A stretch of 64,000 nt of DNA from Clostridia bacterium (GTDB lineage: Bacteria; Bacillota; Clostridia; Christensenellales; Borkfalkiaceae): the NCBI GenBank assembly GCA_017502525.1, contig JAFVUV010000010.1, positions 494-64,493 of the forward strand, read 5' to 3'. Numbering within the stretch: position 1 is the first letter of the stretch; every line of letters starts with the position of its first letter. The position numbers and the translations under genes were made by a program. This document shows positions 500-10,860 of the stretch, piece after piece. The notes under the pieces were generated by a model that ran no database searches, was not told the DNA's origin, and worked only from the letters and a program-made list of their open reading frames with translations.

Positions 500-1830
500 G
501 GTGGGCATTATTAGACAAAAATTTTGCAAACGTATAAAAATTGGGAAACAAACGATAAAAAGGTAAAACAATATGAACCGTGCAGATTAGACTTCACGGT
601 TTATTTTATTATAGTATGCTTCTTCCTTTTGATTGGGAGTTTTGTAATTATTGCTTCTATGTGGGCGATTTTGATTATAAAAATCTATATATTCTGCAAT
701 TCTTTGTTTAAGTAGTTTTACTGAAGAATAAAAGCTTCTATATATTTCTTCTTGTTTAAAAGAAGAAAAGAAAGATTCAACAACGCCATTGTCATAAGGA
801 TTACCAGACTGAGAAAAAGATTGCAAAATGTTGTGTTTTAATAACAACTTTCTAAAAGCAAATGAAGTGTATTGACACCCCCTATCAGAGTGAAACATTT
901 TAGGAGTACAAAAGTTTCTTTTAATTAGAGCCTCGTTAAAGGTGGATGTTATTAATTGAGTGATTGCTCTTTGAGAAATTTTGTAAGATATAATTTTTCT
1001 AGAGTATAAATCCATAATTACACAGATATGATAACTTTGTTGCTTATATGAAATCCTCGTGCAATCACTTGCCCAAACTTGATTTGGCCCTTCAACATTA
1101 AAGTTTCGTTGCAAGTGGTTTTTGGGTGGGTGTAGCTTATTCCATAAAGAATGGTCTCTTTTCGCTGTTGAACGAAAACTTCTAATACCCAATTCTTTCA
1201 TCAGTTCTCGTACTAATGGTTTGCTCGTATGAAAACCTTTTGTTTTTAATACTGCAAGAATTTTATCTGAACCAAACAAACCTCTGCTATCTTCATAGAT
1301 TTTTAATATTTCACTGGATAGTACTTGTCGTCGTTTTACATAAGAAGTGTTTTCTTTTTTATTTCTTAATATATGGTTATAAAAAGTGCCTCTACTAACA
1401 TCTAATGCATCGCATAAAACTCTAACACTAAATTTACCATATAGTTTTTCCAGTTCTTTTAGTTTTATTTGTAGTGGAGAATGAATTGTACAATTTACTA
1501 ATTTTAACACCTGATTAATTTGTTGAAGTTTAAGGTTTTTCTTTTTTTCGTTTTCATAAGCAGATACGTATTTAATTTCGTCTAAATTTTTTATTTGTTT
1601 GTATTTCTTTATCCAGTAGTATATAGTGCTTCGTGGAATATTGTTTTTAATAACTATTTGCGAAACAGGTGTTTCTGCTTTATATTCTTTCAAGCATGTT
1701 TTGATTTTATTGATTTGATGTTGCATTATATTTTCTCCTTTTTAGCAATTATAACAAAAAATTAGACTCAAATAATTTTGCAACAAAAAATATTCATAAA
1801 AACTTGTTGTCATGTAAGCTTGATATTAAA
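500..1830 (-). mobile_element. IS3-family insertion sequence (boundaries approximate; terminal inverted repeats not resolved by eye)
   Basis: Contains a single transposase ORF. It is flanked upstream (1-500) by short stop-interrupted coding fragments and downstream by an AT-rich promoter region. No clean TG...CA inverted repeats could be identified. Confidence 0.45.
587..1726 (-). CDS. IS3-family transposase: N-terminal HTH plus DDE (rve) integrase core in one uninterrupted 379-aa ORF
   Basis: N-terminal HTH (IPRSTIYYWIKKYK). DDE core motifs: WASDCT, HSDRGCQYTS, NPYDNGVVESFFSSFKQE and YNQNRPHRSNNYKTP. Confidence 0.88.
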   Translation of the reverse strand: MQHQINKIKTCLKEYKAETPVSQIVIKNNIPRSTIYYWIKKYKQIKNLDEIKYVSAYENEKKKNLKLQQINQVLKLVNCTIHSPLQIKLKELEKLYGKFSVRVLCDALDVSRGTFYNHILRNKKENTSYVKRRQVLSSEILKIYEDSRGLFGSDKILAVLKTKGFHTSKPLVRELMKELGIRSFRSTAKRDHSLWNKLHPPKNHLQRNFNVEGPNQVWASDCTRISYKQQSYHICVIMDLYSRKIISYKISQRAITQLITSTFNEALIKRNFCTPKMFHSDRGCQYTSFAFRKLLLKHNILQSFSQSGNPYDNGVVESFFSSFKQEEIYRSFYSSVKLLKQRIAEYIDFYNQNRPHRSNNYKTPNQKEEAYYNKINREV

Positions 1831-1924: not shown

Positions 1925-3268
1925 ATGAAATTTTTTTTATTAAAAATGAAAGTTTATGGAATTAAATGCATAGATAAAGAAGTTGTTTTGAATTTTTATA
2001 ATAAAACGCTGCAAGAGAAATTGGAGATTTCTAAATCACATGTTAAGGCTATTTATGGTACAAATGGTGCAGGAAAAACGGGAATTATTTATGCTGTAGA
2101 TATTTATCGAAAATTAATGCTTCAACAAGATTATATTACATTAGGAAATTCGTTTTCTAATAATCTTTTTTTAAACTTGATCAACCAAAAGACTCATAAA
2201 TTTGAAATTGAAATGACATTTGCGTTGATAGATAAAAAAGATACGTTGAAGACTGTTTTTACACACAAGGTTGTTATCGAAGAAGATAATGGTAAATTTA
2301 GTCTATCAGAAGAAAAATTAATTGAAAATAGTATTAAAAATGTAGATTTAGAAAAAGAAATAATTTTTCATGTTAAAAAGGGCGAAATAGAATTGATTAC
2401 AAATGCTTGCCCAGACAAGGAGACAGTGAAAAATTTAACGATGAATTTATTACAAAAACAAAGTTTTGTAAATATATTATTTCATAATTTCTTTAAAAAC
2501 AAAAATTTTAAGATTGACGACAAATTTAATTTTGCAATTATTGCAACACAAGTATTTTCTGCAAATTTAACGGTGGTTCTACAAGACTCAGATACCAATT
2601 ATATTGATTTTGATGCGATAAGTAGTCAGTATGAATGGCTTGGGCAAATAAAAGATAATATAAAAGATGATGCAACATTTTATCAGCTTCTTACGCAAAA
2701 ACGAATTACAATGAACAATACGGAAAAAGTTTATAAAAATGAGTTTGAAGAGTATAAAAAAGATATAGAGGCTCTTTGTTCTTTTATAAAAGTTTTCAAA
2801 AATGATTTAGTAAATATAGAAATAAAAACAGAAGATAATGGAGATGTCTATGAATGTGATAATATAATGGTTTATGAGGATGGAAAAAGGATAAATAAGA
2901 AATATGAAAGTACAGGCATAAAAAAAATAATACAGCTTTATTCTGCTTTATGCGATATAGAACATGATAAAATTGTTTTTATAGATGAATTTGACGCTAA
3001 TATTCATGATGTACTTTTGGTTAAACTTATTCAATATATAGTTGAGTATGCTTCAGGGCAATTTGTTTTTACAACACATAATCTTGCTCCTATGGATGTT
3101 TTGCAAAAATACAAACATTCAATTGATTTTCTTTCAGTGGATTCTAAACTTGTTCCATGGGTCAAAAATGGTAATCGTAAGGCAGCATTTCAATATAGTA
3201 AAGGACTGATAGAATATTCTCCTTTTAACCTTGAACCATTTAATTTCCTTGGAGTTTTTGGAGAGTAA
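1925..3268 (+). CDS. ABC/AAA_21-like ATPase of the OLD/AbiL/PARIS class (ATPase component without nuclease domain)
   Basis: Walker A GTNGAGKTG. Signature-like STGIKK. Walker B IVFIDEFDANIHD. H-loop FTTHN. Long helical insertion between Walker A and B, typical of AAA_15/AAA_21 defence ATPases. Confidence 0.75.
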   Translation: MKFFLLKMKVYGIKCIDKEVVLNFYNKTLQEKLEISKSHVKAIYGTNGAGKTGIIYAVDIYRKLMLQQDYITLGNSFSNNLFLNLINQKTHKFEIEMTFALIDKKDTLKTVFTHKVVIEEDNGKFSLSEEKLIENSIKNVDLEKEIIFHVKKGEIELITNACPDKETVKNLTMNLLQKQSFVNILFHNFFKNKNFKIDDKFNFAIIATQVFSANLTVVLQDSDTNYIDFDAISSQYEWLGQIKDNIKDDATFYQLLTQKRITMNNTEKVYKNEFEEYKKDIEALCSFIKVFKNDLVNIEIKTEDNGDVYECDNIMVYEDGKRINKKYESTGIKKIIQLYSALCDIEHDKIVFIDEFDANIHDVLLVKLIQYIVEYASGQFVFTTHNLAPMDVLQKYKHSIDFLSVDSKLVPWVKNGNRKAAFQYSKGLIEYSPFNLEPFNFLGVFGE

Positions 3269-3269
3269 T

Positions 3270-3782
3270 ATGTTAGCTTTAATTTTTTGTGTTGAATGTA
3301 ATAAAAAATCAGAATCTGACAAAATGTATATATCAAATGTTATAAAAAATTTTTATAAACTAGATACATCAATCAAAACAAGATATTTGAATTTTGCTGG
3401 TAAAGGAAAATATAAGAGTGAAAAAATAAAGAAAGAAATTGAAAAAATTAAAGCAGAACCACATTACAAGCAAATTAAAGTTGTTTACTGCGTTGATGCT
3501 GACAAGATTCAAGCAGATCCAGATACAAATAAACTAAATGAAGAAATAAAAAAATATTGCAAAAAAAATAATTATGAATTTGTATGGTTTTGTAGAAACA
3601 TAGAAGATGTTTTTTTACATAAAACTATAAATAATTCTAAAGAAAAGATAAAAGCGGCAAAGAAAGTTGGTAGAGTTGGGGGGATAGGCCTTGCAACAGA
3701 AAAAACATTGACAGCCACTAAGCTTTCGGAGAACAAAAGCAATTTGATGTCTGTTGTAGATAAAGTTTTGCAAAGAAAATAA
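3270..3782 (+). CDS. RloB/DUF4276-like Toprim protein, partner of the upstream ATPase
   Basis: ATG lies 1 nt after the ATPase stop. N-terminal LIFCVECNKKSE (Toprim Glu), central VVYCVDADK (DxD) and C-terminal FCRNIEDVFLH resemble the RloB pattern. The ORF-track start at 3231 overlaps the upstream gene and is less likely. Confidence 0.6.
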   Translation: MLALIFCVECNKKSESDKMYISNVIKNFYKLDTSIKTRYLNFAGKGKYKSEKIKKEIEKIKAEPHYKQIKVVYCVDADKIQADPDTNKLNEEIKKYCKKNNYEFVWFCRNIEDVFLHKTINNSKEKIKAAKKVGRVGGIGLATEKTLTATKLSENKSNLMSVVDKVLQRK

Positions 3783-5421: not shown

Positions 5422-5943
5422 TTGGTTTACGTTGTAGATTTAGATGATACTTTGGTTTCAACGAAAAACCTAAATAACGATGCTTATAATTTTGCTTTAG
5501 AGAATAACGGACATAAAAGACTTAAAACAAGCAAAAGGTTGACACGTGAGAACTTAGGCGAAACACTTAGCAAAAAATTGATAGCCGATAAGCAAAACTA
5601 TTTTACTCAAAAGTGGCTTAAATATAGAGTTGTGGTTAACGAATATTTATTAAATATTTTGCGAAAACAAGACGTTCAAAATTGTTATCTTTGGACAAGC
5701 GCAGATAAAAATCGAGCCAAGTATTTATTAAAAGAATTGGATTTAGCTAAATACTTTAACAAGATAATTTTTGACGACAAAAAAGACTTAAATAGTTCAT
5801 TAAAAAGATTAAAAGACATTACCAAAAGTAATGTCTTTATAATTTTTGAAGATAGTTATGCTTTGTATAAGAATAAAGGCGTAAGTTATATAGCGAAACA
5901 TAATAGTGAAATCTTCACAATAAATACATATTTTTATCAGTAA
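5422..5943 (+). CDS. HAD-superfamily hydrolase (phosphatase-like)
   Basis: Motif I VVDLDDTLV (DxDxT), motif II LWTSA, motif IV-like IIFDDKKD. TTG start directly abuts the DprA-like stop codon. Confidence 0.65.
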   Translation: MVYVVDLDDTLVSTKNLNNDAYNFALENNGHKRLKTSKRLTRENLGETLSKKLIADKQNYFTQKWLKYRVVVNEYLLNILRKQDVQNCYLWTSADKNRAKYLLKELDLAKYFNKIIFDDKKDLNSSLKRLKDITKSNVFIIFEDSYALYKNKGVSYIAKHNSEIFTINTYFYQ

Positions 5944-5995
5944 AAACCTAACGAAAAAGACAAAATGGTTCTTTTAGTTAGGCAAACTTGCAACC

Positions 5996-6034
5996 AAAAA
6001 GAAAAGGACACTAAAGGGTGTCCTTTTTCTTTTT
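5996..6034 (+). terminator. Intrinsic, bidirectional-looking terminator after the PRTase-DprA-HAD operon
   Basis: AAAAAGAAAAGGACAC - loop - GTGTCCTTTTTCTTTTT: a long A/T-flanked stem with one bulge. Confidence 0.7.
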
Positions 6035-6046
6035 GACGTGCTGAAA

Positions 6047-6209
6047 GGAGAGAGGGGATTTGAATTAGGAGAAAACTTGCTTGGCAAGTTTGCCCAAAGG
6101 GCTAAATGGTGGGCACCCACCATTTAGCGGGAGGCTCGAGAGAAGAAAATCCCCTCCCCGCAACCACTAGATACACTGTTGAACCACCTATGGTTCAACA
6201 GTGTTTTTT
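6047..6209 (+). ncRNA. Candidate structured small RNA (multi-hairpin element closed by a long-range stem, ending in a strong intrinsic terminator); class unknown
   Basis: - Long-range pairing: GAGGGGATTT (6052-6061) with AAATCCCCTC (6147-6156).
- Internal hairpins: AAACTTGC/GCAAGTTT, GCCC/GGGC and TAAATGGTGG-GCAC-CCACCATTTA.
- Competing helix: GCGGGAGG (6127-6134) with CCTCCCCGC (6152-6160).
- Terminator: ACACTGTTGAACCA-CCTA-TGGTTCAACAGTGT + T6 (6173-6209).
- No ORF in this stretch. Confidence 0.45.
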
Positions 6210-6274
6210 ATTAGCAAAAATCTAATCATTTTAAAAAGCGAAAACCTTGAAAGTTTTTGCTTTTTTTATTTTTG

Positions 6275-6303
6275 TTGAAAACTTATGAAAAAAGTGATAT
6301 AAT
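6275..6303 (+). promoter_or_regulatory. Near-consensus sigma-70 promoter with extended -10 for the 6364 gene
   Basis: TTGAAA (6275-6280), 17-nt spacer, then TGaTATAAT (6295-6303). Confidence 0.6.
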
Positions 6304-6363
6304 ATGACACACATATGGCATTTTTATGGGCTATAATAAAGAAAAAATATAAGGGATTACGTT

Positions 6364-7620
6364 ATGCAAAAGCCTCATATTCATTTAATTGATAGGCAAC
6401 AAGAAATAAAAATAACTATATTGGAAAGAAATGAAGGACAACCATATGGAACAGATGATAATGATTTTTTGCCTGTTAAAATTGAATATACAAGCAAAAA
6501 GGTAAGCTTTATAAAGGAGCTCATATATTTTGACACTTATGAAATGCTTTGCTTTTATTGTTCTTTAGATAACATTTCTATAGGTAATATTAAGAAACAA
6601 GGTTTTTCTTTTTTTGTAGAGCCCGATATAGATTTTTTGTTGGAGAATATAGATGGTAAAATATTATTTACTATATTTTACAAAGAAAACGAAGAAAATA
6701 AAGATAGAATTGAATTAAAACAGGTGTTTACCAAACAACAATTTAATGAATTGATTAAAAAAGTTCATCAAGGTTGTAGTTTGTGGTTTGATGATAGTGA
6801 CATTATTGAGTTTAGGGAATATTTAGATAGTATCGAAGATGGTTACTACGATGAAGTTTTGCCAAGGCATAGAGTAGCAGAAGTAGAGTTTAAAAATAGT
6901 GGTAAATTATATTGTTATTTATGTAAAGATGAAAGTATAAAAAAAGGTGATTTAGTTGTTGTTCCAACTTTTTTTGATAAAGAAACTATTGCTGAAATCA
7001 TAGGCATAGAGTATTTTGAGGAAGATGATTTGCCTTGTTCATTAGATAAAATGAAAAAGGTAATCAAAAAATATGTTAAGCCACTAAGCGACAAGATAGG
7101 TGTTCATAGTTATGATATAACCGAAGGTGGCTTTGGATTTGGATTATTGGTAAACTTTGTGTTTCAAAAAGATGGGAATTCAGAATTTTCAATCAAAGAT
7201 AAAAACGCTTACTATAATGTTTATTTGAAAGAATACAGAGACATATATTTAGATTCTTATAGAGAGATGCTTATGCTAAAACCCAACGAAATGAAAATCA
7301 CGAAAGGACTATGGTTAACGGCAGAAAAAGTTTTGCATATAGGTTTTGTTGATAAAAAGAAAAACTTTAGCATGTTTTTTAATAACATTTTAGATAAAGC
7401 AAAAAAACTAAATATACGTTGGGTGGGAATCCCTTGTATTTTAGAAAAATATAATGGAATTAGAGAAACGACATTTTTTAAAACTGCATTAAAAGCAACA
7501 AAAAAGTGGATTTTAGAAAATAATAAATATGAGATAGAAATTCTTTTTTGTTGCCCAAATAAAAGATTATATAAAAAATTTAAGAAAATTTACGATAAAA
7601 AAATAAAAGCGAATAACTAA
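6364..7620 (+). CDS. Hypothetical 418-aa cytoplasmic protein; C-terminal ~120 aa weakly macro-domain-like
   Basis: No signal peptide or TM helix. The C-terminal stretch GLWLTAEKVLHIGFV...NIRWVGIPCILEKYNGIRETTFFKTALKATKKWILEN...EIEILFCC resembles the macro-domain pattern by eye only. Confidence 0.3.
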   Translation: MQKPHIHLIDRQQEIKITILERNEGQPYGTDDNDFLPVKIEYTSKKVSFIKELIYFDTYEMLCFYCSLDNISIGNIKKQGFSFFVEPDIDFLLENIDGKILFTIFYKENEENKDRIELKQVFTKQQFNELIKKVHQGCSLWFDDSDIIEFREYLDSIEDGYYDEVLPRHRVAEVEFKNSGKLYCYLCKDESIKKGDLVVVPTFFDKETIAEIIGIEYFEEDDLPCSLDKMKKVIKKYVKPLSDKIGVHSYDITEGGFGFGLLVNFVFQKDGNSEFSIKDKNAYYNVYLKEYRDIYLDSYREMLMLKPNEMKITKGLWLTAEKVLHIGFVDKKKNFSMFFNNILDKAKKLNIRWVGIPCILEKYNGIRETTFFKTALKATKKWILENNKYEIEILFCCPNKRLYKKFKKIYDKKIKANN

Positions 7621-8841: not shown

Positions 8842-10860
8842 ATGGCTAAATCAAAGAAATATGATATTAACAAATTGACCCTTGAAGAAAAAATATTACT
8901 TTTGACTGGCGTTAACGAATGGAAGACTTATTCAGCAAATGGAAAAGTCCCTCAAATAGTAGTTTCTGACGGGCCTAACGGACTTCAAATGTTTGATGAT
9001 GACAACAATAGAAAATCCGCTACAGCTATGCCGGCTTTATCTTTGGTTGCGCAAACTTGGGATAAAGAACTTGCGTATCTTGATGGCGAAACTATCGCCA
9101 ACGACGCTATTGAAAACGGTGCGGATATTTTGCTTGCGCCAGGCGTAAACATTAAAAGAACACCGCTTAACGGCAGAAACTTTGAGTATTTTTCCGAAGA
9201 CCCTATGTTGTCGGGCGTTTTAGCAAGAGAGTTTATTAAAGGTGTTCAAGACAGGGGCGTTGGCACTAGCCTTAAACACTTCTGTGCAAACAATAGAGAA
9301 AAGGGCAGAAGAGTTCAAACTAGCGAAATTGACGAAAGAACTCTTAATGAAATTTATTACCGTCCTTTTGAAATTGCGCTTGAAGCAAAACCTTGGACTG
9401 TTATGTGTGCGTATAATCCCGTTAACGGCGTTTACGCTTCTGAAAACAAAAAATTATTAAAAGGCGTTTTGCGTGATAAATTAGGGTTTGACGGACTTAT
9501 CGTTTCAGATTGGGCTTCCGTGCAAAATCCTTATAAATCTATTAAGGCTACCATTGATTTAATAATGCCTTACAATGAATTAACTCTTGATAGCGTTAAA
9601 GAGGCCTTGGCAAAAGGCAATATCTCCATGGAAGAAATTGACTACTGTGTAGAAAACGTTCTAAATCTCGTGGAAAAAGTACAAAATTCTACGCCTAAGA
9701 TGAATTATAATAAAGAGCAACGCCACCAAAACGCTGTTAAGATTGCTAAAGCCGGTATTACTTTATTAAAGAACGAAGACAATATTCTTCCACTTAAAGA
9801 CGGTGGAAAATACTTGGTGGTTGGCGACCTTTCGGAAACACCGCTCGGTGGCTTGGGTTCTGCCTACGTTCAAACCGATTACGTTCAAGAACCGGTTGCA
9901 AAATTACTTGCGGAAAAATTACCCAAATCAGAAGTGGGTTACGATAGAGCCGCTTGCGCTTGTGCAAGTTGGGCGGGTAGCAACCGCATTAAGTTAGAGT
10001 ACGCAAAGAGAGTTTATACCGAAGCCTACGAAAAAGACGCTGTGATAGTATTCGTTAGCGGGGATACCGAAAGCGAATCGTTTGACCGCAGTCATATAAA
10101 ACTTAAAAAAGAATACGAAGAAGTCATACGCAATTTAGCAAGGTATAACGAAAATATTATCGTCGTAATCAACGCGACAAGCGCGATAGATATGCAAGAT
10201 TGGATAGACGACGTTAAAGCAGTTGTGATTGAAGGCTTTGCGGGCGAAGCGACCAACGAAGCGATAAGTTCCATACTTGCAGGCGAAACCAATCCTAGTG
10301 GTAAGCTTGCAGAAAGTTTCCCTTACGATTTAGAAGATACGTTCACGGGCGACGATACGGGTAATGGGTTAGTAGAGTGGTATAACGACGGAATATTCGT
10401 TGGTTACCGCTACTATGAAAAATACGGCATAGACGTGCTCTTCCCCTTCGGACACGGACTTTCTTATTCAGAATTCAAATACGATAATTTGAGCATTGAA
10501 CAAACGGGCGAGTGTGATTTCACCGTTTCGTACGACATAACGAACGTTTCTAACGTTGACGGTGCGGAAGTTTCTCAAGTTTACGTTAAAGACGTGTTCA
10601 GTATGGTTATCCGCCCTGAAAAAGAGCTGAAAGGCTTTGAAAAGACCTTTATAAAAGCGGGCGAAACAAAGAGAGTTTCGGTTAAGTTGGATTTCCGTTC
10701 GTTTGCTTATTACAACACGGCGCTCGATAAGTGGCACGTAGAAAATGGTGCGTTTACCGTGCTAGTTGGTGCTTCTTCAGCAGATATAAAATTAACGGGC
10801 AAAATTAATATTAATCTTGACGATTCAACTCAACAATCTCAGGCGTTGGTTGGTCGTTAA
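8842..10860 (+). CDS. Glycoside hydrolase family 3 (beta-glucosidase/BglX-like), cytoplasmic
   Basis: SDGPNGLQ, KHFCANNREKGR, nucleophile region GLIVSDWASV, and a C-terminal Fn3-like domain (VYVKDVFS...ELKGFEK). No signal peptide. Confidence 0.88.
   Translation: MAKSKKYDINKLTLEEKILLLTGVNEWKTYSANGKVPQIVVSDGPNGLQMFDDDNNRKSATAMPALSLVAQTWDKELAYLDGETIANDAIENGADILLAPGVNIKRTPLNGRNFEYFSEDPMLSGVLAREFIKGVQDRGVGTSLKHFCANNREKGRRVQTSEIDERTLNEIYYRPFEIALEAKPWTVMCAYNPVNGVYASENKKLLKGVLRDKLGFDGLIVSDWASVQNPYKSIKATIDLIMPYNELTLDSVKEALAKGNISMEEIDYCVENVLNLVEKVQNSTPKMNYNKEQRHQNAVKIAKAGITLLKNEDNILPLKDGGKYLVVGDLSETPLGGLGSAYVQTDYVQEPVAKLLAEKLPKSEVGYDRAACACASWAGSNRIKLEYAKRVYTEAYEKDAVIVFVSGDTESESFDRSHIKLKKEYEEVIRNLARYNENIIVVINATSAIDMQDWIDDVKAVVIEGFAGEATNEAISSILAGETNPSGKLAESFPYDLEDTFTGDDTGNGLVEWYNDGIFVGYRYYEKYGIDVLFPFGHGLSYSEFKYDNLSIEQTGECDFTVSYDITNVSNVDGAEVSQVYVKDVFSMVIRPEKELKGFEKTFIKAGETKRVSVKLDFRSFAYYNTALDKWHVENGAFTVLVGASSADIKLTGKININLDDSTQQSQALVGR

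Follow-up and report, generated by a model that had tools for sequence, protein, structure and literature searches.

The window, as the whole 64,000-nucleotide stretch of DNA analysed here will be called, comes from an uncultured gut Clostridia genus and opens with a composite defence island that occupies its first 6 kb. The left end of this island is lost at the contig start, which lies 493 bp ahead of the window near an IS3-family transposase gene (587-1726, minus strand). On the plus strand there follow an AbiL-like AAA ATPase gene (1925-3268) and its small partner gene (3231-3782), and then a ShosTA cassette (PRTase-DprA-HAD) that ends at 5943. Next comes a pseudo tRNA 3' end (5967-5996, plus strand) composed of a T-loop-like GGTTC, approximately 18 unrelated bases and GCAACCA, the last 7 nt of initiator-type tRNA-Met. 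Immediately behind it stands the element under study, a unit of approximately 165 bp consisting of a first terminator (T1), a left arm, a four-helix module and a copy of a tRNA 3' end; in the window the unit spans 5997-6166, and all of its parts lie on the plus strand.

T1 (5997-6034) is a hairpin at 6001-6028 with a run of T residues. An earlier note on this DNA had placed an operon terminator at 5996-6034, but it is the unit's own T1 and recurs ahead of every copy described below. Beyond T1 lies a spacer with a degenerate outer left arm (6035-6051), and no promoter-like site was found there between T1 and the left arm. The left arm proper (6052-6061) is the 5' strand of the closing helix P1 and is antisense to the 3' part of the T-loop and the 3' strand of the T-stem in the tail. 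As first noted, GAGGGGATTT at 6052-6061 pairs over 10 bp with AAATCCCCTC at 6147-6156, the P1 3' strand, which is embedded in the tail. Within this closing stem, an unpaired purine-rich motif (J1/2, 6062-6072; family consensus GAAUUAnGGAGnAA) leads to three local hairpins, all of which had been recognised correctly: P2 (6073-6091) by folding, the mini-hairpin P3 (6092-6102, GCCC AAA GGGC) by eye in the alignment, and P4 (6103-6126) with its perfect 10-bp stem (6103-6112 with 6117-6126) and GCAC loop by sequence, folding and covariation. The junction after P4 (6127-6146) contains a conserved CGGgnAGG motif, which in subtype A reads CGGGAGGCUCGAGAGAAG, and is followed by the tail (6147-6166), the last 20 nt of initiator-type tRNA-Met from T-loop to CCA. 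The strong terminator reported after the element is present as T2 (6173-6209; hairpin 6173-6204).

T2 is homologous to the terminator that follows an unoccupied initiator-type tRNA-Met on contig C10 of the same genome, and the tail region is 92% identical over 38 nt to C10:9063-9100, which covers the end of that tRNA and 8 nt past its CCA. T2 of the window copy is the native tRNA-side flank. Further downstream, a third terminator-like hairpin (6233-6265) precedes the promoter-like site at 6275-6303 (score 11/12), which has the consensus form and serves a 418-aa gene (6364-7620). This gene has no Pfam or PADLOC family, just a sub-threshold Macro match, and may belong to a further island. The view that the element is not a 5' leader of that gene holds up, and the element has no tie to the gene of the kind that had been raised.

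Over 176 nt, the window element has a minimum free energy of -74.4 kcal/mol compared with -45.8 +/- 4.1 for shuffled sequences (z = -7.0), with none of 200 shuffles folding as well. The opposite strand folds equally well (z = -7.9), so folding by itself gives no strand assignment. A scan of the whole window at Rfam gathering scores returned nothing for the element, in agreement with the earlier note's failure to place it in a family, and at E <= 10 over 5700-6500 there were sub-threshold matches on the terminators only, with no family among them. The alternative helix proposed to exclude the closing stem does exist in the window copy, with its 3' strand at 6153-6161, one base off the 6152-6160 that had been given. 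Its status as a switch common to the family is another matter: a form of at least 7 bp occurs in only 12 of 101 copies, mostly of the fMet type. It comes from a fortuitous match of the conserved G-rich motif to the C-rich acceptor strand of tRNA-Met, and the window copy has it because that strand of the initiator-type tRNA is carried there. A small ORF or type I toxin was also considered and rejected, as the frame formed by AAGGAG and TTG is broken by loop-length differences among copies.

The repeat family and its tRNA genes

Searches with BLAST and nhmmer identified approximately 13 copies of the unit, at 72-86% identity, in the window's own genome (G000 among the G-labelled genomes of the genus; 1.46 Mb, 96% complete). 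Eight of them lie 38-58 nt downstream of a same-strand tRNA gene predicted by ARAGORN (Leu-GAG, Pro-CGG, Ser-UGA, Ser-GCU, Lys-UUU, Glu-CUC, Leu-CAA and Ser-GGA), and six of the eight carry an exact 20-21-nt copy of the 3' end of their own tRNA, from T-loop to CCA. One further copy stands behind the tmRNA gene, and another two occur as tandem units where contigs end. The tmRNA (contig C7:16913-17200; L017:514-801, minus strand) is recognised by Rfam at 88 bits and missed by ARAGORN, and the tail of the unit behind it copies the tmRNA 3' end.

The order of parts is constant, running from tRNA through T1, left arm and conserved core to the tail copy, behind which a second terminator lies. The left arm is the reverse complement of the 3' part of the tRNA's T-loop and the 3' strand of its T-stem; being antisense to its own tRNA in this way, it causes the closing stem to vary from copy to copy and to track the tRNA. 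A derivation of the left arm from a partial tRNA duplication was rejected since, judged by eye, the arm complements the tail perfectly and is not a copy of the 5' strand of the T-stem.

A covariance model built on 12 copies from G000 was then searched in genomes of the genus and the order. It detected 1-15 copies per species in 31 of 36 species of the genus and zero copies elsewhere in the order, where 150 more genomes were searched, five of them belonging to two sister genera. With 80 further loci retrieved, 100 full-length copies were examined. A same-strand tRNA lies 38-101 nt upstream in 66 of these (at 38-62 nt in 63 of the 66), covering 21 anticodon types, and in 50 of the 66 the tail agrees with the upstream tRNA at 19 or more of 21 positions. 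Arrays of two to three units occur in G000 (C32/C22), G003 (C17), G030 (C30), G011 (C19) and G008 (C27), and a contig from another metagenome joins position 6159 to 5990, which amounts to a tandem array of the window unit. Units of the fMet type stand directly behind an intact tRNA-Met in other species (L088, L089 and L126). The window segment 5997-6166 is thus, from its sequence, one copy of a genus-wide tRNA-linked repeat family, namely that of initiator-type tRNA-Met. What had been described as a free-standing, locus-specific element is instead a member of a dispersed family normally found behind tRNA genes, while its description as a conserved, structured, non-coding element outside Rfam is upheld.

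Some tRNA loci carry more complex arrangements. In G000, a solo tRNA-Lys-UUU (C13:32100-32330) is preceded by a 3'-end fragment of tRNA-Lys-CUU, as in the cluster at C13:47252-47409, and is followed (C13:31600-32100) by a mixed array that begins with a family unit and another module, continues through a degenerate tail and a further T1, and closes with a truncated unit. Elsewhere in the same genome, a tRNA-Asn (C4:30-3330; L188) is associated with an unrelated, GC-richer module of approximately 125 nt whose tail copy is 21 nt long. Another, near-identical copy of this module lies 3 kb downstream, and a DUF4379 zinc-finger/REase-like gene and a 227-aa gene are located between the two.

The covariation check that had been suggested for the helices was run across 101 copies, and compensatory change supports P1, P2 and P4. 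In this alignment, which was fitted to the model and so favours structure, though the margins are large, paired cells make up 90.4% compared with 72.9% when shuffled, changes on both sides occur in 23 of 28 pairs, and the covariation score is 0.436 against 0.137 for shuffled alignments and at most 0.081 for slid partners. Both sides of the pair change in nine of the ten pairs of P1, and all six pairs of P2 show compensatory change, with 30 G-U pairs to 4 A-C combinations. P3 was left out of the model (R1), and its variants CCC/GGG, UCC/GGA and GCC/GGC were seen by eye. Across the helices, G-U/U-G combinations number 127 and A-C/C-A combinations 61. This excess of G-U points to the tRNA strand as the strand that would fold, as does, in its orientation, the same-strand terminator found after every unit. 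The unpaired J1/2 and post-P4 motifs are likewise conserved in the family. Module identity is approximately 0.71-0.75 whether or not a pair of copies has a tRNA or a genome in common, and the downstream flanks are at 0.53, the level between unrelated loci. The cores are too short for a tree to tell orthology from hopping; resolution is poor, and labels cluster only weakly by tRNA or genome (47 changes versus 58.7 shuffled, and 67 versus 78).

Insertion point, islands and the defence cassette

The point at which units enter a tRNA locus can be read from two genomes, G008 and G003, that have a tRNA-Leu-CAA locus in common with flanks 93-98% identical. In G008, the CCA of the tRNA is followed by two units and a partial tail, and then by the native terminator. 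In G003, the CCA is followed by an island with a 512-aa large serine recombinase and a pseudo-end, and then by the same terminator as in G008; the recombinase ORF runs through the pseudo tRNA end. It follows from this comparison that the units lie exactly between CCA and the native terminator, that T1 comes with the unit, and that the terminator behind the last tail is the native one. Islands carrying large serine recombinases and the units evidently use one insertion point. Three such recombinases of 503-514 aa are located at island ends, in G000 (C10:7558-9102), G003 (C14; L201:44-1582) and G031 (C8; L145:6623-8134), and the two that were compared are 41% identical. The G000 frame crosses the 3' end of a tRNA-Met at 9081-9158, and the G003 frame, having crossed its pseudo-end, continues into the terminator.

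Occupancy and content of these sites differ among relatives. Three species have nothing inserted at the orthologous tRNA-Ser-UGA site, and two have unrelated modules of like build there. These two modules (L132, G006 C5; L133, G001 C6) differ from one another and both go undetected by the covariance model; the first retains a P4-like hairpin, and in the second the spacer is 65 nt long, with 7 nt antisense to the acceptor strand. Among loci otherwise 96-98% identical, the T1 hairpin differs. At the tRNA-Arg-ACG loci of G003 (L058) and G008 (L060), for example, the tRNA and tail are near-identical, the module is 96% and the downstream flank 98% identical, and a wholly different T1 hairpin stands between CCA and left arm, as if it were a swappable cassette.

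Approximately 15 of the 100 copies are orphans in which a pseudo tRNA end precedes T1 and accessory genes lie upstream. The pseudo-end has a T-loop-like start, 12-20 unrelated bases and the last 6-8 nt of a tRNA, and homologous pseudo-ends precede orphan copies in G028, G008, G009, G030, G018, G031 and on contig C33 of G000. In G030, a tRNA-Ser remains 1.9 kb upstream of the pseudo-end, T1 and unit; in G008, two units behind a tRNA-Ser stand apart with a 2.7-kb block of genes between them; and in G031, a serine recombinase gene adjoins the pseudo-end and ends approximately 140 nt ahead of the unit. The fullest case is G000 C33:120327-127760 (L187), where tRNA-Ser-GCU is followed by a unit and two mini-islands. 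The first island encodes an HNH endonuclease, a methyltransferase and a 399-aa protein, and the second encodes a type II R-M system (D12 methyltransferase and PD-(D/E)XK nuclease) and a TIR protein (PDC-S35). Both have a common left end and right pseudo-end (...ATCACCACTTGCCCGCCA), and each finishes with pseudo-end, T1, unit and tail, with T1 identical and the unit module types different.

Returning to the window, no intact tRNA lies directly upstream of its copy and the defence island takes that place. The pseudo-end at 5967-5996 can be read as the right edge of the AbiL/ShosTA island and as a hybrid attachment-site remnant. From this layout, we infer that the island integrated at the junction between the tRNA end and T1 and thereby parted the unit from its tRNA. 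An island end like that of the window, also with ShosTA, is fused to an fMet-type unit in G013. The duplicated tRNA ends in the DNA also serve as extra landing sites for recombinase-borne islands.

Such a history bears directly on the idea that the element is the functional RNA of the adjacent defence system, acting as an antitoxin, guide or scaffold RNA. In its favour, a unit comes directly after the ShosTA cassette in the window and in G013 and stands beside the cassette in G201 and G030. When the proposed co-occurrence with PRTase-DprA-HAD was followed up, cassette orthologues were located in approximately 13 species of the genus, but a unit was present at only two of nine retrieved cassette loci, plus one in the list of matches, leaving seven of the nine without. 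Conversely, of the approximately 150 matches in the genus, most lie behind tRNAs with no ShosTA cassette nearby. The geometry is not constant either, as in G201 and G030 the cassette follows tRNA-Glu and its unit, so that the unit of G201 is upstream of the cassette instead of downstream, and G011, where no unit is present, has a different cassette immediately after tRNA-Glu, its island having a homologous left end. The obligate linkage to a system's protein genes that is expected of a defence ncRNA is thus not seen. The unit adjoins a defence operon because islands land at tRNA-end copies, which accounts for the adjacency with no functional pairing. The unit does not form part of the defence system, and the defence-RNA reading that the earlier note had raised is largely refuted and hardly credible.

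Readings of the conserved fold

The best overall explanation, and one that is on balance probable, is that the window carries a tRNA-linked unit separated from its tRNA by an island, with a fold that would act as RNA on the tRNA strand. Such action of the conserved fold is suggested by the covariation and strand bias described above. The unit RNA would be made by read-through of T1 or, for a subset of copies, may be initiated at a -10-like box in the spacer from T1 to the left arm; it would be closed by the helix of left arm and tail and would end at or near the tRNA-like tail and T2. This route is drawn by analogy from rrA/B/F of E. coli, which are released from tRNA/rRNA transcripts. Several observations temper it. 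The T1 hairpins look like strong terminators, which counts against read-through, and the -10-like boxes, approximately 2.5-fold enriched in the AT-rich spacer, are non-universal and missing from the window copy. In many copies the closing helix stops 8-11 nt before CCA, and the tail is therefore no clean mimic of an acceptor minihelix. The G-U bias would also fit a folded single strand of DNA. Finally, with a copy number of 0-15 per species, tandem arrays, and gain and loss between close relatives, the turnover of the units looks more selfish or recombinational than that of a housekeeping RNA.

These last features are the natural ground for a different and rather unlikely reading, in which the units are non-autonomous mobile or recombinational DNA placed at the junction of CCA and terminator by a recombinase encoded elsewhere. 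T1, left arm, module and tail would then travel as small circles or cassettes, any RNA would be a by-product, and the fold would matter as single-stranded or cruciform DNA or not at all. The units do occupy the exact point used by large-serine-recombinase islands, their presence differs between close relatives, a single genus ranges from 0 to 15 copies, and they form tandem arrays, including the joint of 6159 to 5990 in another metagenome. The weak clustering of modules by tRNA or genome, the unrelated module families with one common build, and the six tyrosine and four serine recombinases encoded in G000 add to this case. Yet no recombinase could be linked to the mini units, and searches of the 96%-complete G000 turned up no TnpB, IS110 or reverse transcriptase. 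A crossover within the last 6-8 nt, as in the pseudo-ends of islands, leaves unexplained the perfect 20-21-nt tail and the antisense arm across 21 tRNAs, and the compensatory change in P2-P4 together with the 2:1 G-U bias requires a single-strand reading. It is very improbable that the units are inert scars, that is, att duplications left by repeated integration and excision of islands at tRNA ends. Integrative elements classically leave duplicated tRNA ends, islands with pseudo-ends are plentiful at the loci concerned, and T1 hairpins are swapped between otherwise near-identical loci. A scar, however, would not be expected to hold a core of approximately 95 nt at 70-75% identity next to intergenic DNA that has reached saturation (53%), to keep an antisense arm matched to each tRNA, or to show covariation in 23 of 28 pairs.

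Particular classes of mobile DNA were also considered. The units are not MITEs, which are marked by terminal inverted repeats specific to the element, by a target-site duplication that is short and of fixed length, and by kinship to an autonomous transposon. In the units, the apparent inverted repeats differ per copy and come from the local tRNA, what is duplicated is the tRNA end over 20-21 bp, and the search brought up no related coding element. An ordinary att duplication was rejected because the DNA between the tRNA-end copies is approximately 145 bp of non-coding sequence with no recombinase gene or cargo, unlike the genuine islands that occupy such sites. A TnpB/IscB-type guide RNA, an IS110 bridge RNA and a retroelement were set aside because a TnpB, IS110 or RT gene was not found in the 96%-complete G000.

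Comparison with known systems

The closest counterparts of the units are the TLRs of E. coli, which comprise the rtT repeats of the tyrT operon and rrA/rrB/rrF behind 5S rRNA (PMC8144298; Egan & Landy 1978 and Rudd 1999, as cited in Stenum et al. 2021). At its 3' end each E. coli unit repeats the final 18-19 bp of the gene ahead of it, and a locus holds one to five units; rrA/B/F are situated between T1 and T2 and are produced when transcription reads through T1 (PMC8144298). The Clostridia units resemble them in being protein-less and directly downstream of a tRNA on the same strand (66 of 100 copies, plus one tmRNA), in carrying at their 3' end a copy of the end of the upstream gene (20-21 nt here), in occurring in tandem (1-3 units per locus here) and, like rrA/B/F, in standing between two terminators. 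No homology in sequence or structure was detected. Rfam includes an RtT model, and no RtT-type match was obtained at E <= 10. The covarying four-helix core and the tail-pairing antisense left arm are absent from the description of TLRs in PMC8144298, and the host is an uncultured gut Clostridia genus. The build of the units, as judged from sequence, is that of the E. coli TLRs, whereas the sequence family, covarying core, antisense arm and host differ. One role put forward for RrA/B/F is titration of CsrA (PMC8144298). A CsrA sponge of the kind proposed for E. coli RrB was rejected here because a CsrA gene was not found in G000, and the titration role therefore does not transfer. A search of the literature for tRNA-linked elements of such build outside E. 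coli returned nothing relevant.

Two further comparisons are instructive. At the tRNA att sites of islands and prophages mobilised by tyrosine or large serine recombinases, the tRNA 3' end is likewise duplicated around the insert, and insertion occurs at the very end of the tRNA gene, a junction that serine-recombinase islands use in this genus. Unlike integrative islands and their integrase-less derivatives, the unit is approximately 165 bp and cargo-free, its core is structured and covaries, and its antisense arm is matched to the target. Its tail is a perfect 20-21 nt across 21 tRNAs, unlike the island ends here, which are degenerate and limited to the last 6-8 nt. The other comparison is with 3'ETS-leuZ of E. 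coli, a functional sRNA cut from the trailer of a tRNA transcript (PMC8144298). It offers a precedent for the proposed synthesis of a unit RNA; it differs in having no tRNA-end copy, a single locus and known targets.

A more speculative and improbable proposal is that the units are a general and previously undescribed class of tRNA-matched structured modules, acting as RNA or folded DNA, that make and manage extra tRNA-end attachment sites. If this were true, they would be programmable landing pads that steer defence islands to tRNA loci while the tRNA gene is not endangered, base-pairing to each tRNA would determine both the antisense arm and the sense tail, and E. coli TLRs and the Clostridia units would be parts of one widespread phenomenon.

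Although E. coli TLRs have been known since 1978, their function is still mostly lacking. For the annotation of genomes, hairpin clusters of such build beside defence islands should not be taken as defence RNAs. The insertion point resolved here to the base, between CCA and the native terminator, coincides with the landing site of serine-recombinase defence islands, and this common point leads to testable ideas on how tRNA loci turn into island hot spots. A covarying, tRNA-matched family in gut Clostridia suggests that this build is a general feature of bacterial tRNA loci and not an enterobacterial oddity.
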